From NCBI GenBank assembly GCA_001600815.1, contig BCKZ01000019.1, positions 62,001-126,000 on the forward strand: a stretch of DNA of 64,000 nucleotides, in the 5' to 3' direction. The stretch comes from Alloascoidea hylecoeti. Lineage: Eukaryota. The notes under the pieces are model-generated. The model searched no databases. It saw nothing but the letters and a program-made list of their open reading frames with translations, and had not been told where the DNA came from. Made by a program: the position numbers and the translations under genes. Below, in pieces: positions 3,001 to 61,068 of the stretch. Numbering within the stretch: position 1 is the first letter of the stretch; every line of letters begins with the position of its first letter.

Positions 3001-4201
3001 TTATCATTAAGCTTAAGCCAAATTAATAGTTATCAAGAATGTATTTACTAGTAACTTATAGCTATAGCATATAAAGTTATAGTGGTGCTCTATTAATTAG
3101 ATATATTTCATTTGGTAATCCTAATTCGCATCGAAAGCACTATGGTGGAGGTAATTTTCCCGTCCATGTGGACTTTCCCGGACACCTCCTACCAACAACA
3201 TTAAATGACTTTTTAAAGACCATGGCGGATAGAATAGGGAATGACAAATATAATTTATGCTGCTCTTTTATTTTTATTGGTTTGTGTTGAGGCTAGATAA
3301 GTCATTCCAATATGGATGATTTCCTTCATACCACATTTATGTAAGCCTATATATAGTAAGTATGTATATGTGCATTACCAAACATGGTAGTAAACTCACA
3401 AATGTTAAATATTCGTACACTTTGTAATTGTATGAATGTACAAATTAATTGATTGCCATCATCCCATGGTTTAGTCAAACCAAATATTAATCTACATTTT
3501 TGAAGCCAACTATAAAACTATGATGGAGGCGCAGACACGATATACGTGCGCGCATCTGCATATTATAACCTATAGTTAGTATTATATTAACTTTTCAACA
3601 TAAAACGGTGTGTAGGCTAAATTTAAAATACATACTAAGTACGATTTGAATTATTGATATAATATTTGATGAGTTAACTTTAATTAAAAAAAAATCGCCT
3701 AGAACAAACACCAATTGCAATGAATAAAGCTCTAAGCCTTACATCATAAAGAACTAATTATCAAATTTTCTTTGCCGCTACCAAATTAAAGCGCTTGTTA
3801 GAACTTGGAATCAATTACGTCAGAAAGCCACACGACCTTCACAGCCCAAGAGTTATCATATCCGACTGCTGTATTGCAATTCTGATCGATTTTAAATATT
3901 GCAATTTTAAAAGATATGTTTGGCGCTAAATACCAACCATAGAATAGGTGACAGCTAAAGTATAGGTACTGCCCTTAGCATTTATATATGACTGTAAGTT
4001 ATATTATATATTACAAAAAGTCAAGACGTTATAAATATACAGATTTAAGTTTAACACATTTAACACATTTAACACTATGTAGTATAAACTATAAATGGCA
4101 ATATCGCAAATTTTCAATTGTAAAATGTCGGTGTTTATTTTTCAAATAGACCTATAGTATATTGATAGCTAGAAAAGATCTTATAGCTATATAGTGAGCT
4201 C

Positions 4202-4416
4202 TAACACCGTGCAGATATGCACCACCATAATAAACTAAAAGAATTTTTAAAATTTAACAAAACTATTTATTGCTTATATGAAATGTAGTGCGATGAATAG
4301 ATTTTGGTTGTGTAGTCATCTTTGGTGACACAGGAGAATCTGGCAGTTCTATATAGATTTAAGAAATGTTTTAGTCTCTGTGTTTATTATGGTGCAGATG
4401 TTCGCGCGGTTGTTGT
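4202..4416. mobile_element. Possible degenerate MITE (~215 bp) bounded by imperfect ~35-bp inverted repeats
   Basis: Perfect 13-bp inverted pair CACCATAATAAAC (4223-4235) / GTTTATTATGGTG (4382-4394), extending imperfectly outward (ACACCGTGCAGATATGCAC vs GTGCAGATGTTCGCGCGGTTGT). TA lies near both ends. Similar fragments at ~3545-3570 and ~3605-3620. Confidence 0.35.
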
Positions 4417-4799
4417 AGGCTAGGCTTATAAAGTAGTTATGATCAAATTTTACGTCTCTATAGATAAATACAGGCAATGAGTTATTCCTGCAATTATAAA
4501 GTTCCTATATAGCTAGTCTTATTTCGGCATGTTCTCCTGGCACGTTTTTTTCCAGCTGTGGTTGAAATAAAAAGTGATTTCTTTAGTTTCGAATTCAATC
4601 TTAATTAAAAATGACGCTTGGAAATTGAGACTAAAATCAAAAAATTCAAACATCACCGGTCTCAGGATACGTTACAGTTTTATGATTTTAGGTGAATTTA
4701 TAAGAATTTTTATATAATACTAATTTTCTTTATATATTTTTGGAGGTTCAATATATGATGATAATTACACATTTGCTAGTATGATGATTGTTACGCAGA

Positions 4800-25904: not shown

Positions 25905-25976
25905 TGCCGTTGCCCAGAATCGAACTGAGGTTTCATCGGCCACAACGATGTGTACTCACCACTATACTACAACGGC
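25905..25976 (-). tRNA. tRNA-His(GUG), intronless
   Basis: GCCGTTG TA GTATAGTGGTGAGTAC A CATCG TTGTGGC CGATG AAAC CTCAG TTCGATT CTGGG CAACGGC A folds into a full cloverleaf with anticodon GTG; a T6 Pol III terminator follows. Confidence 0.97.
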
Positions 25977-35846: not shown

Positions 35847-38006
35847 ATGGCCGGAAAGAAGAAGGATCCTCTTGAAGGAGAAGAAGTATGCTCCATACCC
35901 ATTCATTTTGCTGTTTCGTGTGTTTTTGCCATACTGATCATATTATATTAGAGACTACAAGCTGTGTTACTCACAGACACATATCTAACCAGATTTGATC
36001 CTTTGACCAAATACACTCCAAGATGTTTATTGCCACTTGCGAATGTCCCTTTACTAGAATACACCCTTGAATTTCTGGCGACTGCAAATATTGATGAGGT
36101 TTATCTAATGATTCATACACAAGCTCATGATAGAGCAATTAAAAATTATCTTGAGTCATCCAAATGGCATAACACCCATTTGTTCAAAATTCATCGAATG
36201 GTTTCTCCAGAATCTTCATCTGTCGGTGATGCTCTTCGTGATTTGGATTCAAAGGGACTCATTACAAAAGATTTTTTACTGCTTAGTGGTGATGTCGTAA
36301 CAAATATGTCTTTTGAAAAAGTTTTAAAAGCTCATAAAGATCGTAAATCAAAGGATAAAAATGCAATTGCAACCATGGTACTTAAACAAGCTTCTTCAAT
36401 ACATAGAGCACGTTCAAGAATAGAATCTGGAATTTTTATATTAAATAAAGAAGGAAGATGCTTACAGTATGAGCCATCATCATTAAATTCTTCTTCTTTA
36501 ATAATTGATCCAGAAATTTTAAATGAACATGATACTTTAGAACTACGAAATGAATTAATTGATTGTCGTATTGATATTTGTTCACCTTTGGTACCTCAAC
36601 TCTTCACTGAAAATTTCGATTATGATGATTTAAGATCCGATTTCGTAAAAGGTATATTATCTTCGGATTTATTAGGTAAAACTATCTATACCTATATTTT
36701 AACTGATGATTATGCTGCAAGAGTTGATTCTCAACAAACTTATGATGCTATAACAAAAGATATTGTGTCCCGTTGGGCTTTCCCAATTGCTCCTGATGCA
36801 AATTTACTTCCAACACAAACTTATAAACATTCAAGAGGTCATATCTATAAAGAAGATGGTGTTAAATTGAGTTTTGGTTGTCATATTGAATCATGCACCG
36901 TTATTGGGGAAGGTTCGTTCATAGGTACTGGATCAAGAGTGAAAAATAGTATAATTGGAAGAAATTGTAACATTGGTGAAAATGTCATTTTGGAGAATGC
37001 TTATATTTGGGATGACGTTAAAATTGGTAATAATTCTAAAATTTCTTATTCAATTGTTGCAAATGGTGTTCACATTGGGACTAATGTAGTTGTTCATGAA
37101 GCTTCTATAGTTGGATTTAATGTTAAGATAGATGATGATATAACGATTAAGAAAAGAACAAAATTAATTTTGGAAGAACCTGAAGAAAAAAAAGGAGATA
37201 ATTCCTCTTCAGATGATGAATATATAAATGAAAAAAGAGATGCTTCTATTGTTGGTCCAAATGGGCTTGGATTTGAATATTGTGAGAAACACATAAATGT
37301 GTTTGAAACCGATTCTACTTCAAGAGATTCAGATGAAGAAACAACATATACGAGAGATGATTTAGCTGATACCGGTCTTATTTATCAATTGGAAGATTTG
37401 ACAATTTCTGATGATTCAATTTCAACATTTGAATCTGCTCCTCGTCGTAGAAAGCCTCGTACATTAAGTGGTACTAGCGCTTCTGCATATTCGGCTGAGG
37501 AAGATGATTTTGAAGATGAGAGTTTCGATAAAGAAGCTATTGCATCTTTAAATAGAGCAATGGATGAAAATCATGATATAGATGTTGCAGTTTTGGAAAT
37601 CAATACTTTAAGAATGGCAATGAATGTGGATTATGATGAAGTCAGGGAAGCTACTGTAAGAGCATTACTAATACGAATATCACATTTCATAGAAACAGGT
37701 ACCTTAGAAATAAAAGAAGCTTCTCAGAAAGTGTTACGACATTGGTCTATATTATTTAAAAGACAAATTTTTAAAGAAACAGATGAGGTACACTTGTTAA
37801 ATTTATTTGAACAATATTGCCGTGAAATTAACCATGGTAAAGGGATTCTTTTTTTTGTCATAGATATTCTATATGATTTAGAGATTGTACAAGAGCAAAA
37901 TATTTACAAATGGTTCGAGACTTGTGACAAAACAGAGGTTTCTAAGGCAGTTGTTGAATTTGTTGAATGGTTACAAAATGCTGAGGAGGAAAGTGATAGT
38001 GAATAA
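35847..38006 (+). CDS. GCD6: eIF2B epsilon subunit, 2 exons (35847-35885, 35952-38006)
   Basis: MAGKKKDPLEGEE|RLQAVLLTDTY..RF.PLT...PRCLLPLANVPL, hexapeptide repeats, W2 domain FVEWLQNAEEES. Intron GTATGC..TACTGAT..TAG. Confidence 0.96.
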
Positions 38007-40144: not shown

Positions 40145-41506
40145 CTAATGTTCTTCTTTGTGTGGTGTAAGAGGATACAAAGATGGGACAGCATTTGAAC
40201 CTTCAATTGTTTCTACTAAAGATAGCGGTACACTTGAAGCGCTTGAAGATCTTGTGGTTGATCTATCATCAAATAAAGAGGAAATTGTTGAAGATGAAAC
40301 TGATGTGCTTGCACTATGTGAACCATAAGATCTTGGGTGTCTATTAATATTCATACCCTGAGGTGACGTCAAGTTGGGAGATACTAAGGTCGGTAACATT
40401 TCAAATTCATAATCCCTGTTGAATTCTTGGGAATTTTCAAATCCTGATTTTTTTGTTAAATATGATAATGATGGTGATAAAGAATCATACTCAAGACTTG
40501 TGTAAGACCATCTACTAAAATGATTTGATGTTATTTTTGGTAAAATTGTGAATTTCGTAAAATAAAAAACTGAAAATGATAATATTGCGCCACCAATTAA
40601 ATCAATAAAATAATGATGAGTTAAATACATTGTGCTCCACCATATCCATAAAACATAGCATGTAACATATGGAATTGATCGAGGAAAAACATATGACATA
40701 AATAATGCCTCCATTACTGCACAACCTGAGTGAAGAGAGGGAAATGCACCAAAGACCATTGGTGAAACATTAAAGGATTTGGTATACATTTGTAACCCCA
40801 GAATATCATCAATTCGAGCTAACCCACCGGGGGATCCAGGAACCGAATAATTTGCAGGAGCGAGGCCATGTAAGTTTTTATACCACGGTGGAGCAGCAGG
40901 GAAAAATATTTGCATAAGCACTCCAAAAAAATTCATGAATCCAAATGCAAACCCGTAAGCTCTTAACGATTTAGGAGGTGCAAATAAGAAAATGACACCA
41001 GCGAGCACAAACGGAGCTCCGAAATGAACAAGGCCATATGGAATCCAGGCTAGAATATCTAACAATGGACATGTATAAGAAGCCAACACATTACTTAGAT
41101 TCCCTCCATAAAGAATAGTTTCGATGGCCGGTAGCACCCGCACATGTATGTTTGGCCTCCATGAGTCCGGAATGAACTGAGAAGAGTAGAACAATATCAA
41201 CCACAAAAAAATTGGCATTGCCGGCCAGAAAAACTGCGATGTTATTGGCGTCAACACCGATCCAAGCAATAGCACTACCAGGATCAATCGAATAACGAGA
41301 GGAGGGTTGCGGATGATTGATATTCCAAAGAGAAATGAGCAGCCCATAATGACATACTGCAGGTCAAAAACTGTATATCGATGGGCTTTTAGTTTCTTGA
41401 TTGTTACTCTAACATCCAGGGAAGTCTCAAGGTCTGGCAAAGTAGAGCCAGTTGGTTTTCCTGCCAGAAAATATGAGGCAAATTGTCGGCAGATCCCATT
41501 CATCAT
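40145..41506 (-). CDS. AUR1: Inositol phosphorylceramide synthase
   Basis: ITSQFF, VRVLPAIETILYG, WIPYGLVHFGAPF, PAAPPWY, GSPGGLARID, FGAFPSLHSG, TMYLTHHYFIDL. Confidence 0.96.
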   Translation of the reverse strand: MMNGICRQFASYFLAGKPTGSTLPDLETSLDVRVTIKKLKAHRYTVFDLQYVIMGCSFLFGISIIRNPPLVIRLILVVLLLGSVLTPITSQFFWPAMPIFLWLILFYSSQFIPDSWRPNIHVRVLPAIETILYGGNLSNVLASYTCPLLDILAWIPYGLVHFGAPFVLAGVIFLFAPPKSLRAYGFAFGFMNFFGVLMQIFFPAAPPWYKNLHGLAPANYSVPGSPGGLARIDDILGLQMYTKSFNVSPMVFGAFPSLHSGCAVMEALFMSYVFPRSIPYVTCYVLWIWWSTMYLTHHYFIDLIGGAILSFSVFYFTKFTILPKITSNHFSRWSYTSLEYDSLSPSLSYLTKKSGFENSQEFNRDYEFEMLPTLVSPNLTSPQGMNINRHPRSYGSHSASTSVSSSTISSLFDDRSTTRSSSASSVPLSLVETIEGSNAVPSLYPLTPHKEEH

Positions 41507-41714
41507 TGACTTTAATAAAAATGGAGTAATAATACTTTATAGCTACTTGAGAATAACTCCGGATCCGTACTTGCATTATGCATACAAGGTTACACGTGAT
41601 GATGCTCCGGGTAATAAACGTCGTTTATTGTCGTGCAGAGTTGATAATTATATTTACTGTGTACCTACAGAATATTATACTGATATTTAGCTTGTTAAAT
41701 ATACTTTTTATAAA

Positions 41715-42983
41715 ATGAATCAAACTGAGAGAAGATCCAAAAGATCAAATAAAGGAACACACTCCTTCCTTGAGCGGGAGCGACAAAGAGAAAGTGAGCT
41801 TGTTTCACAATGGACTATAAAGAACAAAAGAACCAAAACAGATCAAACACATACACACAAAATATTAAAACGAGCGCACGTAGAAGCAAAAACTGACAAA
41901 GCAATTGACAGTGATATACATACAGAATACACTACAAGCGAAGGAGTTGTTAGGTGTGTTTGTGTCCCGGAGGATTTAGACCATATTGATAATGAAAATC
42001 TCTTATGGTTAGAATGTGAAAGCTGTACGACTTGGCAACACTCTTACTGCATTTTAGGGATAAATGATGAAGCTCATTTACCTAAATATTACCAATGTCA
42101 CAATTGTAACCCATCAAATTATCCCAATGGTTCATACTTAACATTTTTAAAAAATACACTGAATACCGTTCCTAAACCCATCTCAGACTCAGGTTGTGGT
42201 ATTATTCCTGCACAACTTTCGATTGAAGAATCGTTAGCAACACACCTTTTTAAAATCAAAAACAGCATACGAAAAACTGTTATTCTTGCTATCTATGCTG
42301 CTCTAATACAAGTCACACTCCCACAATCATTTATAGAATTAAATCCAGAGTTTGCAAGGGATTATGCAATACAGGTTGAAAATGAACTTTATAACGATAC
42401 GCACGCTAGTGGTGATGACACCCCTAATTTAAAATATAAAAATATTTTTAAGATTATGTTACTGAACTTGAGGAATAAAAAAAATAATGGACTAAAGAAC
42501 GGGATAATTAATAATGAAATTTCCCCAAGCCAATTGTTGAATAAATATTTTCATCACCTTTCGCAATTGCAAGACTTTAGATTAGAAGCCCAGCAACTGG
42601 AGGTCCCCTTAAATAACTCCACAATAAATATGAATGAAATTGACATTACTCGAATTAACAGCCATGGGCATAATAATCCATCTGGGGACAAATCCAAAGT
42701 CCAAAAATTAGATGCATTGAACCTTATGATGGCTTCTCCACATCAAAGCACTATCTATTGCAATTCAAACACTACAATAACTGAATCAGAAGCATCATCT
42801 CCTTCTTCATTAACAAGTAACATAAAGCATGCAATTATATCATTACCCTCAACGGTAACTAAAGAAGACTTTATGCATAATGATATTTATATTAAGGATG
42901 TTCATGATCATGAACAACATTCCCCAAAGTTGAATATTAATTTGACAATAAACCCAAACACCATTGACGTTTCTCATCATTGA
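41715..42983 (+). CDS. BYE1: Bye1-like PHD finger + TFIIS-central-domain protein (no SPOC domain evident)
   Basis: N-terminal RRSKRSNKGTH; PHD GVVRCVC..WLECESCTTWQHSYC..YQCHNC; TFIIS-M-like VENELY..YKNIFK..LLNLRNKKN. Position between AUR1 and RPL14 supports orthology. Confidence 0.8.
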   Translation: MNQTERRSKRSNKGTHSFLERERQRESELVSQWTIKNKRTKTDQTHTHKILKRAHVEAKTDKAIDSDIHTEYTTSEGVVRCVCVPEDLDHIDNENLLWLECESCTTWQHSYCILGINDEAHLPKYYQCHNCNPSNYPNGSYLTFLKNTLNTVPKPISDSGCGIIPAQLSIEESLATHLFKIKNSIRKTVILAIYAALIQVTLPQSFIELNPEFARDYAIQVENELYNDTHASGDDTPNLKYKNIFKIMLLNLRNKKNNGLKNGIINNEISPSQLLNKYFHHLSQLQDFRLEAQQLEVPLNNSTINMNEIDITRINSHGHNNPSGDKSKVQKLDALNLMMASPHQSTIYCNSNTTITESEASSPSSLTSNIKHAIISLPSTVTKEDFMHNDIYIKDVHDHEQHSPKLNINLTINPNTIDVSHH

Positions 42984-43347
42984 GAGTTTTTATATTGCTT
43001 TACAGATACTTAGATTGACCACGATTTTATAGAAAAGTAGTATTTATTTAAGGTATAATAATATTCATTACATATTCGAATTCGTACAATAGATAGACAC
43101 TTGTAAATGTACTATATTGGAGCCTCACATTCTACAAATCGACGTATCACATTTTTATATTAATGATATGATTAAATGAGATGGAAATGTACAATTAAAT
43201 GAGCCTTTAAAAGCAAGTATGCAAGCATACAACTGAGTTAGAAAAAGGATTTGATGAGAATGTACTATAGCATAAAAAATATTATAACATTTGGTTTATA
43301 GAACAGATATATCAGACTAATCACTTCTTTGTCAATCATGATTTTAT

Positions 43348-44055
43348 TTATGCCTTGGCAAGAGCTTTGTTGAGGGCATATTTCTTTTGCTTCTTAAAAA
43401 CACCAACTTGGAATCGTTCAAAATCAGTCAACTGGCTTCTTCGTTCACGTTGAGCAATTTTCTTGGCCCATGAAGATGCAGCCCATTTCTTAGAAACATC
43501 AGATGCAGCCCATTTCTTTGCAATGATGACAGATCTAGCACCACGGGTAACATTTGGGACGGTTAAAGGTGTGAGGACAACGTGAGCCAAAGACAAGGCT
43601 TGGCGTGGGACTTCGGTAGCTGGACCATCAACCAAAACCTATTTATAAAAACGTTAAAAATACATCCAATAGTTATAATGTGTAACAATAAGATCAAGAC
43701 GTGGATTTAAAAGGAATGCATCATAATATAATTAAGCGTTTGATCAATAAGGCTGTGCAATGATAATCTTCAATTTTATTGTAAGCTTTTGAATTAATAG
43801 AAAATAAGCGGCCCTTGAAATAATATTTTGATATTTATATTATCCACGATCATACATGTCTAGTCGATTGCCTTTAAATCCATTTTTTCCTGATACTTGT
43901 TGTTATATGCATTGCAAACTTACTCTCTTGTGGTCGATAATCTCAACAATGACAGCCAACTTGCCAGAATAGGTACCCTTCTTGATAAGTACAACACGTC
44001 CGACTTCGACGAGTCTCCAGTTGGCGGCTTTAACTGTTGTGATGGATTCTGACAT
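43348..44055 (-). CDS. RPL14: 60S ribosomal protein L14 (eL14), 2 exons (44055-43924, 43638-43348)
   Basis: [51 protein letters not shown]; 285-nt intron GTAAGT..TAG. Confidence 0.97.
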
Positions 44056-44203
44056 TTCTAAATTGACGTAGTGTTGGTGTATACGATTAAAGATTTGATG
44101 AAATTAATAAGTGTTTGACAAAAGGAACTCTCAAAAAAAGTCGGTATTACCCAATGTGGTAATAATAGCTGAATCAAAGTCACAAATTAGCAAGGTGTTG
44201 GGT

Positions 44204-44230
44204 TAGCCCTAAGAAATATAAATTTACCCG
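44204..44230. promoter_or_regulatory. Tbf1-like (TAGCCCTAA = TTAGGGCTA) and Reb1-like (TTACCCG) sites in the RPL14/snoRNA-host divergent promoter
   Basis: Exact matches at 44204-44212 and 44224-44230. Tbf1 sites are known at Candida RP promoters and S. cerevisiae snoRNA promoters. Confidence 0.55.
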
Positions 44231-44357
44231 CACATGAGATCATATAAATTTTCTCAACACAATCTAAAACTCCTTCACCCAATATTCTTTTAATAAATTA
44301 TAGGGAAACTGTAAGTACAAAAGTTGCAGAATGATGTTGTTATTTGCTGAATTGTTT

Positions 44358-44466
44358 AATATAATGATGATTTAATTTGCGATTGAGTTCATATTGAGAC
44401 CGAAACATGCCTAGTTTCACTATGGATCATATGGAAATTGAGAACAACCTTCTCGTCTGATATATT
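44358..44466 (+). ncRNA. SNR87: Box C/D snoRNA, snR87-like (predicted 18S Am436-equivalent guide)
   Basis: C box ATGATGA 44364, D box CTGA 44457, terminal stem AATATA/TATATT. Guide TAATTTGCG (44373-44381), before D' TTGA, is antisense to conserved 18S CGCAAAUUA. Lies inside GTAAGT(44311)..TACTAAT..TAG(44532). Confidence 0.8.
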
Positions 44467-44628
44467 TAAAATAATTAATTATAATGGTTTTAATATAAAT
44501 TCTCAAGAAAATTTACTAATGTTTGGTACTAGTCTCTATAGTTGGATTTTTGGATTTGTGCTGTCTGTACAGTTTATGGTATGTTGATTTATTTTCCGAT
44601 CCGTTATTATATTATGACTTCTTAAGAA

Positions 44629-44715
44629 CATCTATGATGAAAAACTTTTGTCTGCTACTTAAAATTGAACTTTGTTATGAAATTTTTACAATTATCACCA
44701 AGATCGCTGATTATG
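44629..44715 (+). ncRNA. SNR24: Box C/D snoRNA, U24/snR24-like (25S Cm1437-equivalent guide)
   Basis: C box ATGATGA 44634, D box CTGA 44707. Guide ATCACCAAGATC is antisense to 25S GAUCUUGGUG; second guide TGCTACT is antisense to AGUAGCA. Perfect 15-bp flanking stem 44617-44631/44713-44727. Lies inside GTATGT(44579)..AACTAAC..TAG(44790). Confidence 0.88.
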
Positions 44716-44844
44716 TTCTTAAGAAGTTGATATAAAAATGAAGGTTCGAATTAACTTTCTTCTTTATTTCAACTAACTTGTCTATAATAGGATCACTTAA
44801 ATGCTGTAGACAGTATTCTTGTATAGTATTTCATATAACTAAAT

Positions 44845-45038
44845 AGATTTGATGATAATATATCTTTTGCGCTCGATCAATATTTCCATAGTTCTGAAGT
44901 TAGGTCACTGAGAATCGTGTTAAAACAAAAAGTAATCGTCTTTGGGGACCAGATCCCGGAAGTCACTATAATCTAGAATACATTGATTGCTTAAACATTG
45001 TATTTTATTACTTGATATACATTTTATTATCTGAGACT
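44845..45038 (+). ncRNA. Candidate long (~186 nt) orphan box C/D snoRNA
   Basis: TTGATGA 44849, CTGA 45031 (internal CTGA at 44894 and 44908), perfect 11-bp flanking stem ATAACTAAATA/TATTTAGTTAT (44835-44845/45059-45069), internal GC hairpin ~44938-44964. No rRNA target recognised. Confidence 0.5.
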
Positions 45039-45187
45039 GTTAAATTTACTACCGGTATTATTTAGTTATTCCTTTCCATCCATTTCTTTTGATTACTCAT
45101 CATCGCACAGATACTGACTAAGTATATGTATTGTTAAATCTGAGAATGAAGGCAAAAACCTTTAAACTCCCCATAAATTTGTGAATC

Positions 45188-45529
45188 ATGTCCCGTTTGG
45201 CACAATCTGAAGACGAGGTAAGATACTTTATTATCAAATGTAAATGTGATGGTTACTAACATTCATATAACCAGCACAATATTAGACTTGAAGCTCTTGC
45301 TTCTAAACTTCAAACACTACGATCGGTGACAAATGATATCCATACACAAGCACAGGACACCTCAGTGTTAGATAGTCTAACGAACTCTATGTCAAATTTA
45401 TTTACGTCCTTGAAAAGGTCATCCACTCATTTAACTCGTTCGGTTTCAGCTGGGCATCCGATCATGAGGACAGTTGGACTAGCGCTGTTATTAGTGTTCA
45501 TACTCTACTCACTTTGGATGTTTGTGTAA
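45188..45529 (+). CDS. SFT1: Golgi Qc-SNARE Sft1, 2 exons (45188-45217, 45275-45529)
   Basis: MSRLAQSEDE|HNIRLEALASKLQTLRSVTNDI..LTNSMSNLFTSLKRSSTHLTRSVSAG..MRTVGLALLLVFILYSL with a C-terminal TM helix. Intron GTAAGA..TACTAAC..CAG. Confidence 0.92.
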
Positions 45530-45717
45530 ACAACCCCACCACTTTTACTCTAGATACAATATGGGTTACGTTTATACTGAGATTAGATTTACTGCTTATA
45601 TTGATGATATTTTTAATACTCATCTATTGATCTTGCCTTACCATTGATATATCTGTAAGTTGTGGATTAGGGTGACAAAGAAAGAAGTGCTAACAAAGAG
45701 CAAAACATTATTTTGGT

Positions 45718-59630: not shown

Positions 59631-60270
59631 CTTTTTTTCAACTAAAGATACCTTGGTAATACGATATATAAATCGGCTGCTACTCCAACTTCAGCTGTTA
59701 CTCAGGAGGACCGTTAGATGATATATATCGATTTTTATTTAAAAATATGTCTCTTGGTAAAAAGCATGATAATGGAGAAGAATTCTAAGTGGCTAAGAAT
59801 CAATTAAAATCCAAATCCACCAAATCACCATCAATAGCAATCCATCATTCTAAAAGGGTTAGATTAGTTTTCTTAACTATGTTTCGTTGATTTTACCTGT
59901 CTTTAATATATGTAAGTTGATATCCATACAATACGTCAAAAAAACATAAAAATCATAAAGCAGGTAAGTGAAAAAGGTATATATTTATAAATGATGCATC
60001 AACTTTCCTGTTCTTTGTGTATAAACTGATCATCTCCATGGCCGTGTTCGGTATGTTTAACTTCTTATAATTAGTACTTGTTTGAATATGAGCTTGAAAT
60101 GTAATAGTCATTAATAGTTTATAATCATTAATGCAAACTTATTTATAGATATGATTTAATTCATATTTGTAAGAACACTTTTCCTTTAATACTTTATCAG
60201 TATTTTATTATTCACAATAGAGAAATTTTCATCATCATAATATTATACAAAGAATATATTAATTATTAAT

Positions 60271-61068
60271 TTAACTAATTGTACCAATTATAGAATCTAT
60301 ACCTATTTTATCATTATTTTTAAAATTATTTTCCTTCTTAACAATATCGTCTTTTATTGAATCATTTTTCTTATTGGTTTGATTACCATTAATACCATTG
60401 GTACCATTTTCTTTTTTTGGTTCATTGTCTTTAATATCAACAGTTCCTCCATTCCATACATTAACATTAAATTGATATCCTGTAAACGATTTGATATTTA
60501 CTTTTGCTTTTTTCCATTTTCTACATGGTTTCCCTGATCGATCAAGAACTCGTATTTGAGCATTAACATTTGATGATAAATTGCTCTTTACTGTAACTTT
60601 TGGAGCACTAACTGGAGCAATCACCGTTGCAGTTGGTGTATTAGCATGTGTTGAATCAGGTCCTGGTGAGGCAGTTGCTTCGGGGGCAGGTGATGATAGC
60701 AATCCAACGCCACCTGTGCCCTTCCGTTTCGCTGAACGTTTAGTATTTTTGGAAGCTTTTTTCTTTACAGTGCTTGTATTAGTATCGTGATCCTCTTCGA
60801 AAGGCAAGGGACTTGACATCATTATAGGTGATGATGGCACATCATTACTTTTAATACTTAGGTTTTGATTCTTAAATGTGATGGGTTCTTGGGTTGGTAA
60901 TCCTTTCTTTATTGAAGACGAGGATGGTAGTGAAAGGTTTGACGCTATACTTTTCAATACACTTGGTTTGAGGTGTAACACAACTGGTTTGGATGGTGTA
61001 GCAAGTCGTTTTATTTTTATTGATGGAATAGGAGCTTTCCTTGCGTTTATGGCACTCCAACTAGACAT
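60271..61068 (-). CDS. IES4: INO80 complex subunit Ies4-like
   Basis: VVLHLKP near the N-terminus; C-terminal VNAQIRVLDRSGKPCRKWKKAKVNIKSFTGYQFNVNVW matches the recalled fungal Ies4 motif. Confidence 0.72.
   Translation of the reverse strand: MSSWSAINARKAPIPSIKIKRLATPSKPVVLHLKPSVLKSIASNLSLPSSSSIKKGLPTQEPITFKNQNLSIKSNDVPSSPIMMSSPLPFEEDHDTNTSTVKKKASKNTKRSAKRKGTGGVGLLSSPAPEATASPGPDSTHANTPTATVIAPVSAPKVTVKSNLSSNVNAQIRVLDRSGKPCRKWKKAKVNIKSFTGYQFNVNVWNGGTVDIKDNEPKKENGTNGINGNQTNKKNDSIKDDIVKKENNFKNNDKIGIDSIIGTIS

Follow-up and report, generated by a model that had tools for sequence, protein, structure and literature searches.

The spacer that includes 44311-44790 very probably holds a short non-coding Pol II host gene with two introns, each of which carries one box C/D snoRNA. 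The best reading of these first two units is a spliced non-coding host that shares a promoter region with the ribosomal protein gene RPL14. We favor a spliced host because the splice signals and the gene order are conserved in fungal contigs, and because cluster VI of S. pombe lists the same snoRNA pair (PMC4138321). On this comparison, the locus is a local copy of an ancient fungal unit, and the gene type is already documented in fungi. All coordinates refer to the window, that is, the whole 64-kb stretch of DNA that was analyzed.

Predicted introns and their guide RNAs

Host intron 1 (44311..44532, plus strand) begins with a GTAAGT donor at 44311, has a TACTAAT branch sequence at 44514-44520 and closes with a TAG acceptor ending at 44532. 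Host intron 2 (44579..44790, plus strand) has a GTATGT donor at 44579, an AACTAAC branch sequence at 44771-44777 and a TAG acceptor ending at 44790. A first-pass annotation had placed two introns here, and our regular-expression scan recovered exactly its coordinates. All four introns accepted in this work, those of RPL14, the host (two) and the SFT1-like gene, have a G at position +5 of the donor. In intron 1, 53 nt separate the donor from the C box and another 53 nt the D box from the branch sequence; the corresponding medians in relatives are 42 and 52 nt.

The two introns are separated by host exon 2 (44533..44578, plus strand), which is indeed the tiny exon of 46 nt that had been proposed. 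Its terminal ATG opens the longest ATG-started frame over the junction of exons 2 and 3, which has 12 codons. The start of exon 3, the terminal exon, follows from the acceptor at 44790, and the exon is given as 44791..44850 (plus strand) with an arbitrary end coordinate. The joined exons have stops in all three frames, in agreement with the earlier claim that they hold no meaningful ORF. The spliced host exons lack coding capacity and are probably unstable.

The snR87-like box C/D snoRNA of intron 1 occupies 44356..44467 on the plus strand. Its box C is ATGATGA (44364-44370), its box D is CTGA (44457-44460), and the flanks TTTAATATA and TATATTTAAA form a terminal stem of 6 bp. The D' guide at 44373-44383 reads TAATTTGCGAT and is identical to the printed rows of the yeast alignment, in which the snR87 D' guide TAATTTGCG is complementary to 18S rRNA around A436. 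The inner hairpin with the extra-pairing element, GAAACATGCCTAGTTTCA, agrees with the D. hansenii row of the printed snR87 alignment. The best Rfam family at this place was snR87 (RF01216), with a score of 33.4 bits (E 8e-4) under the gathering score of 37. On the same model, the snR87 of an S. cerevisiae-type contig (L004) scores 144 bits, and most of the sequences behind the model appear to be of the Saccharomyces type. The counterparts of the snR87 family are Afu_514 in A. fumigatus and "snR85" in S. pombe.

The U24-type box C/D snoRNA of intron 2 (44617..44727, plus strand) has its box C at 44634-44640, the D guide ATTATCACCAAGATCG at 44691-44706 and box D at 44707-44710. It is flanked by a perfect outer stem of 15 bp (44617-44631 / 44713-44727). 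The D guide and box D together (44691-44710) are 20 nt identical to the printed S. pombe U24 and fit the Rfam consensus. This stretch also has the mark of the C1437-guide lineage, a D guide ending in ...CACCAAGATC(N) followed by CUGA; the lineage includes S. pombe U24 and N. crassa CD50. The Rfam family SNORD24 gave 32.5 bits (E 3e-3), under the gathering score of 41. The RNA does not qualify as a double guide, since the D' guide of that type, ATATTTGCTACTT (C1449/G1450), is replaced in the window by TGTCTGCTACTTAAAA, with 12 of 16 positions alike by eye. Seven contiguous pairs are possible in the D' half, where no CUGA-like D' box was found and C' is TGAAA, not TGAGA. A similar D' remnant exists in the printed S. 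pombe U24. The D' half looks vestigial.

Both RNAs had been named in the first-pass annotation, as snR87-like and U24-like, and both identifications stand. For the first, they are borne out by the boxes, the stem, the Rfam score, and a guide and inner hairpin as in the yeast rows, and for the second by the boxes, the 15-bp stem, the D guide shared with S. pombe U24 and the SNORD24 score. A family-model search had also been suggested there as a check, and Rfam matches both snoRNAs weakly but specifically, in each case under the gathering score. At the gathering thresholds, Rfam found only a tRNA in the whole window.

From the sequence features and their conservation, we infer how transcription, splicing, processing and methylation proceed in Alloascoidea hylecoeti. 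The host would be transcribed in the direction opposite to RPL14, and the compact promoter region that they share has Tbf1-like, Reb1-like and TATA-like elements. The primary transcript would have three exons, all small, and two introns with a length of about 215 nt each, and each intron would carry one box C/D snoRNA, about 55 nt past the donor and about 55-60 nt ahead of the branch point. Splicing would free two intron lariats, followed by debranching and by exonuclease trimming that would halt at the assembled snoRNP core. The first product would be an snR87 homologue that guides 2'-O-methylation of 18S A436, and the second a U24-type RNA whose intact D guide would direct methylation of 25S C1437; the guide-target pairing of both was judged by identity with orthologous guides, not against the rRNA of the organism itself. 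A search for RNA runs that contain this stretch listed none, and three metatranscriptome runs from the study with matching DNA gave no reads on 43300-45700.

Gene neighbors and comparison across fungal contigs

RPL14 (43351..44055, minus strand) consists of exon 1 (43924-44055), an intron with a GTAAGT donor (43639-43923) and exon 2 (43351-43638, including the stop codon). Its spliced translation is open, with a KOW motif in exon 1 and a match to Pfam Ribosomal_L14e (E 4e-30) in exon 2. The ATG is at 44055 on the minus strand, so the divergence of the host from RPL14 is as it had been described. The shared divergent promoter region and host exon 1 lie at 44056..44310, and exon 1 ends at 44310. 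Tbf1-like and Reb1-like sites had been reported for this promoter, and both words are present in the 309-nt spacer: the Tbf1-like AGCCCTAA at 44205-44212 (with the word CCCTAA at 44207) and the Reb1-like TTACCCG at 44224-44230. A TATA-like TATAAAT is found at 44243-44249. There are 8 Tbf1-like and 6 Reb1-like words in the whole 64-kb window. Among 29 related RPL14-snR87 spacers, 10 have a Tbf1-like word, and the density is 0.70 per kb versus 0.23 per kb in the flanks.

On the other side, a gene for a small tail-anchored SNARE of the SFT1-like type was located at 45188..45529 (plus strand), with exon 1 at 45188-45217, an intron at 45218-45274 and exon 2 at 45275-45529. The intron has the signals GTAAGA, TACTAAC and CAG, and the spliced frame is open. 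The product shares 47% identity over 83 aa with the gene found at the same place in the contigs L004, L046 and L066. The Atlas labels "SNARE domain" (0.87) and "BET1-like" (0.85) were used as leads only; for this product there was no Pfam match at E 0.01, no PDB match and no homologue in the word index.

We compared the locus with 108 loci collected by a metagenome scan with a pattern of the snR87 C box plus guide. The comparison sample is biased because this pattern demanded the exact snR87 box and guide, and the scan misses lineages that have TAATTTGCGTT in the printed alignment (the rows of D. hansenii, Candida and relatives). Full-length snR87 was found in 79 of the 108 loci, with 52 clusters at 95% identity. 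RPL14 lies upstream on the opposite strand in 25 of the 29 clusters with at least 1100 nt upstream, at a distance of 309-1083 nt (median 432 nt); it is missing in L057, L075, L076 and L080. Downstream, the C1437 guide word occurs at +311 to +529 in 32 of the 35 clusters with at least 560 nt on that side, and it is missing in L004, L062 and L075. A profile search recovered the C1437-guide snoRNA in 26 of these 35 clusters, where the seed sequences of a profile match that profile by construction.

Splice signals were also found around snR87 in most clusters. A donor within 120 nt upstream is present in 43 of 52 clusters, a branch sequence with YAG downstream in 46 of 50, and both in 39 of 52, whereas the control rates at 2439 positions were 26%, 27% and 7.7%, respectively. 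One or both signals are absent from 13 of the 52 clusters under the regular expressions used. For the second snoRNA, both signals were detected in 19 of 28 clusters. The yeast-like loci L101 and L105 have the order GTAAGT or GTATGT, snR87, (TA)CTAAC with YAG, a short exon and a second donor. The order of the snoRNA pair at our locus recurs beside RPL14 in many filamentous-ascomycete-like contigs. Our literature search returned no paper that treats snR87 together with RPL14, and none on Afu_514.

The third unit and other readings of the spacer

An "orphan" C/D candidate downstream of intron 2 (44835..45069, plus strand) is unsupported. It has TGATGA at 44850-44855, CTGA at 44894, 44908 and 45031, and an outer repeat of 11 bp at 44835-44845 / 45059-45069. 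For the C box at 44850 there are two possible D boxes, one at 44908 that gives a 63-nt form with a 4-bp stem and one at 45031 that gives a 186-nt form with a 5-bp stem; the offsets are 0-3 nt. The same box-and-stem pattern is found at 20 of the 162 TGATGA sites of the 64-kb window, and 3 of the 20 are in this spacer. Two other candidates of this kind that were checked, at 36622 and 57963, are inside long ORFs and were dismissed. An snR65-like reading of the orphan's CCATAGTTCTGA was also dropped, as its only matches to the printed snR65 guide are ATAGT and TCTGA. An atypically short SSU fragment of 912 nt (L109), which matches the eukaryotic SSU model end to end (1-1831), had no Watson-Crick complementarity of at least 8 nt to the orphan, in a comparison without a positive control. 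Primer-type scans for fungal rRNA in viral contigs otherwise gave only chance matches and the first 103 nt of one LSU.

The first-pass annotation had described a host of three introns, with the orphan in a probable third intron. In the form considered here, this third intron (from about 44813/44826 to 45122/45144) would release the orphan as a lineage-specific C/D RNA (44850 to 44911 or 45034). The strand of the two real snoRNAs does have a perfect TGATGA and several CTGA words here, and only 0.03-0.06 such box-and-stem patterns are expected by chance in 397 nt. In its long form the orphan is enclosed by the perfect 11-bp outer repeat, and its spacings, 23-36 nt between candidate donor and C box and 77 nt between D box and TACTGAC, are within the range of relatives. 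However, the repeat starts 24 nt past the D box, compared with a gap of 2 nt for the U24-type RNA. The candidate donors GTATTC (44813), GTATAG (44821) and GTATTT (44826) are all without G at +5, and the first AG comes only 4-5 nt after the branch-like A of TACTGAC (45112-45118). Two relaxed scans found no Rfam match for the orphan on the plus strand at E up to 10, its fold energy equals that of shuffles (z = -0.22), and its guide-region words are absent from the printed yeast C/D family alignments (0/17). BLASTN of 44050-45250 against all 108 loci matched the two snoRNAs only, no third snoRNA was seen after the second intron when ten printed loci were viewed by eye, and Table S2 of PMC4138321 lists two snoRNAs only for S. 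pombe cluster VI. The two-snoRNA form is, in these comparisons, the form displayed by relatives. A host of three introns is quite unlikely: units 1 and 2 are upheld by splice signals, snoRNAs and comparison, whereas unit 3 is rejected for its lack of a family match, a fold signal, shared guide words and a donor with G at +5. It is very unlikely that 44850-45034 encodes a true long orphan C/D RNA, specific to this lineage, in a third unit that was appended to the ancient two-intron host and is being born or decaying, with its weak donor and TACTGAC branch. If this were true, such a unit would be a snapshot of snoRNA-unit gain or de-intronisation, and it might join read-through into the SFT1-like gene.

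Two other readings concern the transcript that carries the first two units. The snoRNA introns might belong to an extended 5' leader in the mRNA of the SFT1-like gene, which would put snoRNA output and SNARE expression on one transcript; the two genes are on the same strand, with 397 nt from the last acceptor to the SFT1 ATG, the order RPL14, snR87, SFT1-like gene is common to L004, L046 and L066, and in S. pombe many snoRNA introns are described in untranslated regions of protein genes (PMC4138321). This alternative had been raised in the first-pass annotation, but we find it very doubtful. Only 3 of the 108 loci, all of one cluster, have an SFT1-like gene after snR87, and therefore the host unit exists elsewhere without such a neighbor, in all but one sampled lineage. 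The leader itself would be a poor one, as an ATG closes exon 2, four others (44801, 44852, 45126 and 45146) occur in the 397 nt that follow, and stops are present in every frame. The contig with the S. cerevisiae snR87 sequence has a similar gap of about 400 nt between an intron-less snR87 and the SFT1-like ATG, which fits an ordinary spacer of terminator plus promoter. In that contig, snR87 is at the same place without a donor upstream, so that de-intronisation of this unit has taken place in one lineage. This agrees with a further reading in which the splice-like signals are idle and the snoRNAs either have promoters of their own or are released by endonuclease and exonucleases from a dicistronic precursor that is not spliced. 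Polycistronic snoRNA units of Saccharomyces are processed by endonuclease and exonucleases, and at our locus a cleavage or protection element might be the long outer stem of the U24-type RNA. Against this reading, both introns here retain a donor, branch and acceptor that fit the consensus and are spaced as is typical for intronic snoRNAs, splice signals are enriched about tenfold around the orthologues relative to control positions, and the second snoRNA is not preceded by TATA-like or Tbf1/Reb1-like words. An unspliced origin is highly improbable, and the spliced two-intron host is the reading that we retain.

Known host genes and meaning of the locus

Mitrovich et al. reportedly described non-coding multi-intron snoRNA host genes in C. 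albicans in 2010. Diao et al. (2014, RNA 20:1376, PMC4138321) tabulate S. pombe U24 (25S-Cm1471) and "snR85" both as "intronic/CVI", and snR85 is listed there without a target. They describe each of the seven S. pombe clusters, cluster VI among them, as a single spliced and polyadenylated transcript that starts at one mapped site and has no coding potential. Cluster VI has the same two snoRNAs as our locus, as the printed snR85 bears the snR87 C box and guide and the printed U24 ends with ATTATCACCAAGATCG and CTGA. However, the fission yeasts have a Homol-D box (PMC4138321), whereas Tbf1-like and Reb1-like words are found here. Other multi-intron hosts of fungi, described as clusters I-III in PMC3596301 and as N. 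crassa clusters I-V in PMC2780460, also have one C/D snoRNA per intron, small and poorly conserved exons, no long ORF and canonical splice signals. Those clusters are counterparts of five S. cerevisiae polycistronic clusters (snR72-78, snR57-55-61, snR41-70-51 and others), and the clusters that we found named in these papers do not include the snR87-U24 pair. The transcript had been called hidden in the first-pass annotation; this is accurate for the annotation of the locus, but not for the type of gene, which is well described in fungi (PMC3596301, PMC2780460, PMC4138321). The mammalian hosts of the UHG and GAS5 type are similar in that they yield their product from introns and have non-coding spliced exons, a comparison drawn in PMC2780460 and PMC4138321, but they have no sequence relationship with our locus.

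In the S. cerevisiae-type contigs L004, L046 and L066, as at our locus, snR87 has a divergent RPL14 on one side and, downstream, an SFT1-like gene with an early intron. However, these contigs lack a U24-type RNA and show neither donor nor branch around snR87, and their snR87 appears to stand alone. In S. cerevisiae, U24 is located in an intron of ASC1. Unlike at our locus, the C1437 guide there sits in a double-guide U24, according to the printed alignment. The C1437 guide has different partners in the sequences compared: many contigs pair it with a guide of the snR65 type, our locus with a vestigial U24 guide, and Saccharomyces with a functional U24 guide.

Nothing at this locus is surprising to specialists. 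For annotation, a seemingly empty spacer would hold a real gene with two functional RNAs, both of which are missed by the curated thresholds of Rfam. The long-kept head-to-head pairing with RPL14 suggests a simple co-regulation of a ribosomal protein and rRNA-modification guides. For evolution, the locus links three states, namely the pair of S. pombe cluster VI, the RPL14-linked two-intron form of the filamentous-ascomycete-like contigs and this yeast, and the snR87 without introns that is flanked by RPL14 and the SFT1-like gene in a contig with the S. cerevisiae snR87 sequence. It is a concrete case for studying the loss of introns in snoRNA host genes and the movement of guide functions between snoRNAs.

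Layout of the probable host gene and its intronic snoRNAs

The host locus is a spacer with minus-strand RPL14 (ATG 44055, one intron at 43639-43923, exon 2 matching Pfam Ribosomal_L14e with E 4e-30) on one side and a small plus-strand SFT1-like gene (ATG 45188, intron 45218-45274) on the other. Two plus-strand introns were identified in this spacer. Intron 1 has the donor GTAAGT at 44311, the branch TACTAAT at 44514-44520 and a TAG ending at 44532; intron 2 has the donor GTATGT at 44579, the branch AACTAAC at 44771-44777 and a TAG ending at 44790. The donor-to-C-box and D-box-to-branch distances are both 53 nt in intron 1, and 55 and 60 nt in intron 2. The first-pass annotation had placed both introns exactly, and the plus-strand exon between them measures 46 nt, as it had claimed. 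Stops interrupt all three frames of the joined host exons, in agreement with its view that they hold no meaningful ORF.

Each intron carries one plus-strand C/D snoRNA. In the snR87-like RNA of intron 1, box C is ATGATGA at 44364, TAATTTGCGAT forms the guide at 44373-44383, box D is CTGA at 44457, and the terminal stem has 6 bp. In the U24-type RNA of intron 2, box C is ATGATGA at 44634, the guide ATTATCACCAAGATCG precedes box D (CTGA, 44707), and the outer stem is perfect over 15 bp. Rfam called neither RNA at gathering thresholds. In the relaxed scan, the best families were snR87 (33.4 bits, E 8e-4) and SNORD24, or U24 (32.5 bits, E 3e-3), and a word look-up located both guides in printed yeast C/D family alignments. 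Boxes, stems and families thus bear out the snR87-like and U24-like identities first proposed. The U24-type RNA is a member of the lineage guiding 25S C1437. Its D' region (TGTCTGCTACTTAAAA) keeps 12 of the 16 letters of the U24 D' guide; because the D' box is absent and the C' box degenerate, we take the molecule for a single-guide RNA whose second half is vestigial.

The 309 nt from the RPL14 ATG to the first C box contain a Tbf1-like word, AGCCCTAA (44205-44212), a Reb1-like word, TTACCCG (44224-44230), and the TATA-like TATAAAT (44243-44249). Only eight Tbf1-like and six Reb1-like words occur across the whole 64-kb window, so their presence here, 17 nt apart, is unlikely to be due to chance. 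Both had been noted earlier, and they probably have a promoter function in Alloascoidea hylecoeti.

Several other features were observed in the window. The 3' flank of the snR87-like RNA (TATATTTAAA, within 44461-44497) can pair with its 5' flank, of which a second copy, 17 nt further downstream at 44488-44497, allows alternative stems. Between the U24-type RNA and the intron 2 acceptor, a hairpin at 44725-44774 (22-nt arms, 82% complementary, 6-nt loop) overlaps the first four bases of the branch sequence and could modulate branch-site access; shuffled versions of the 120-nt stretch 44720-44839 fold less well than the sequence itself (z = −2.39). A tRNA gene (25905-25976, minus strand, 63.4 bits) is the sole Rfam gathering-threshold match. 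Two neighbouring genes lie at 40145-42983: on the minus strand, one for a 453-aa membrane protein of the PAP2 superfamily; on the plus strand, one for a 422-aa protein carrying PHD and TFIIS-central domains. At 59912-60293 (+), in intergenic DNA beside a minus-strand ORF, two GTAAGT, one GTATGT and one GTAAGA precede a single AACTAAT...TAG; the box-and-stem scan found no C/D candidate there, and the cluster is possibly a chance product of AT-rich DNA.

Conservation of the locus in metagenome contigs

A search of metagenome contigs for the C box and guide of snR87 yielded 108 loci, with flanks retrieved for 80. The search pattern needs the exact guide and misses lineages reading TAATTTGCGTT (D. 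hansenii, Candida and related rows), among which the nearest relatives of the window may be found. A profile search detected full-length snR87 in 79 of the 108 loci, which formed 52 clusters at 95% identity; the remainder match only in part or by chance, and several of them look coding by eye. Rfam assigned 19 of 20 hand-picked loci to Afu_514, the A. fumigatus counterpart, and their 3' ends agree with filamentous-ascomycete rows of the printed alignment; the other, L004, was assigned to snR87 (144 bits).

The sequence features of the host locus are conserved. Among the 29 clusters with 1100 nt or more of upstream sequence, 25 have RPL14 on the opposite strand upstream of snR87, at 309-1083 nt (median 432); it was not found in L057, L075, L076 and L080. 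A same-strand snoRNA ending in ACCAAGATC-N-CTGA follows 311-529 nt downstream in 32 of the 35 clusters whose downstream sequence reaches 560 nt or more (not found in L004, L062 and L075). A donor occurs within 120 nt upstream of snR87 in 43/52 clusters, compared with 26% of 2439 control positions from the same contigs, and a branch plus YAG downstream in 46/50 (27% at controls). Both occur together in 39/52 clusters around snR87 and in 19/28 around the second snoRNA. Among the relatives, the median spacing is 42 nt between donor and C box and 52 nt between D box and branch. Two short yeast-like loci, L101 and L105, follow this plan as well: their branches are of the TACTAAC type, and a short exon leads to a second donor.

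The second snoRNA varies in its 5' half. A snR65-type D' guide (TAGATAGTA) is found in 17 of 35 filamentous-ascomycete-like clusters, 16 of which also carry the C1437 D guide (L012, L025, L030, L033, L035, L038, L039, L043, L044, L048, L050, L054, L064, L065, L071 and L079; snoRNA at about +250 to +530 from snR87). This combination illustrates how guides have been reshuffled between families. The C box of these 16 snoRNAs is the non-canonical ATGATTA. Other second snoRNAs have a 5' half with ACGCACTGAAAAT (L002, L003, L005, L011, L014, L026, L053, L058, L067, L078) or a short form with AAATGCCTG (L008, L024, L057, L072, L080), and all of these retain the C1437 guide. Separately, L109, a viral-collection contig, holds a 912-nt stretch (3632-4543) that aligns with the full length (1-1831) of the eukaryotic SSU rRNA model; this small-subunit rRNA is therefore much reduced or odd.

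Three loci (L004, L046 and L066) have an snR87 equal, by eye, to the S. cerevisiae row in the supplement of PMC3116282. Their snR87 lies 774-788 nt from a divergent RPL14, as oriented in the window, and 675 nt before exon 2 of a gene whose product shares 47% identity with the SFT1-like protein of the window. Unlike the window, they have no donor before snR87 and no C1437-guide RNA after it.

The proposed third unit and alternative readings

The first-pass annotation had proposed three introns with three snoRNAs; the first two stand, and the third (~44813/44826 to ~45110/45122) is unsupported. Its candidate donors, GTATTC (44813), GTATAG (44821) and GTATTT (44826), all lack the +5 G present in all four introns accepted at the locus. 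Only 4-5 nt separate the branch-like TACTGAC (45112-45118) from the first AG, and a further AG comes at 45143-45144. For the C box at 44850, the possible partners are CTGA at 44908 (63 nt, stem of 4 bp) and CTGA at 45031 (186 nt, stem of 5 bp with offsets); a perfect 11-bp repeat (44835-45 and 45059-69) surrounds the long form, starting 24 nt past the D box. The candidate matched no same-strand family in two relaxed Rfam scans, gained nothing in folding over shuffles (z = −0.22), had none of its 17 possible-guide words in the printed yeast C/D alignments and resembled nothing among the 108 loci. No third snoRNA was seen in ten related loci inspected by eye, and Table S2 of PMC4138321 lists only two for the S. 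pombe snR87-U24 cluster. Box-and-stem criteria are satisfied at 20 of 162 TGATGA sites in the window; the resulting expectation of 0.03-0.06 for this stretch leaves a small probability for a third snoRNA and is by itself no evidence. A real third snoRNA is improbable.

We consider it likely that one promoter region drives RPL14 in one direction and the small non-coding gene in the other. Splicing of two introns of about 215 nt would set free the snR87 and U24-type RNAs, which would be trimmed to snoRNP-protected ends and guide methylation of 18S A436 and 25S C1437, respectively, leaving the spliced exons as by-products. We infer this transcription, splicing, processing and methylation from sequence. 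The host transcript might instead read through into the SFT1-like gene. This is unlikely, as the 397 nt from the last acceptor to the SFT1 ATG resemble the ~400 nt of ordinary spacer before this ATG in the three Saccharomyces-type loci and thus fit a terminal exon, a terminator and the SFT1 promoter, with no need for a third intron. Production of the snoRNAs without the use of splicing has a still smaller chance, given that complete splice signals surround snR87 in three quarters of the clusters but at 7.7% of control positions.

Relation to known snoRNA host genes

Passages of PMC3596301 and PMC2780460 describe fungal non-coding multi-intron snoRNA host genes, likened to mammalian UHG and gas5; the former reports RT-PCR analysis of clusters from several fungi, D. 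hansenii and Y. lipolytica among them, the latter RT-PCR assays of N. crassa cluster transcripts. According to PMC4138321, S. pombe has seven such clusters, for each of which RACE mapped a single start site and a poly(A) tail. Both U24 (25S-Cm1471) and 'snR85' appear in Supplemental Table S2 of that paper, as 'Intronic/CVI' and 'intronic/CVI', respectively. In Table S1, snR85, for which the paper gives no target, carries the snR87 box and guide, as in the window, and the last 20 nt of U24 are identical to the window's U24-type RNA. Judging from these tables, the snR87-U24 pair is therefore already on record, in a cluster reported as spliced and non-coding. In the literature searched, no paper connecting snR87 with RPL14 was found. 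The printed U24 alignment shows a double-guide U24 in most budding yeasts and a Y. lipolytica row without the C1437 guide; the two U24 functions are divided between CD50 and CD51 in N. crassa and between U24 and U24b in S. pombe.

The host locus belongs to an already known kind of gene. Its modest interest comes from linking three things: the fission-yeast cluster, the form next to RPL14 and the de-intronised Saccharomyces-type gene.
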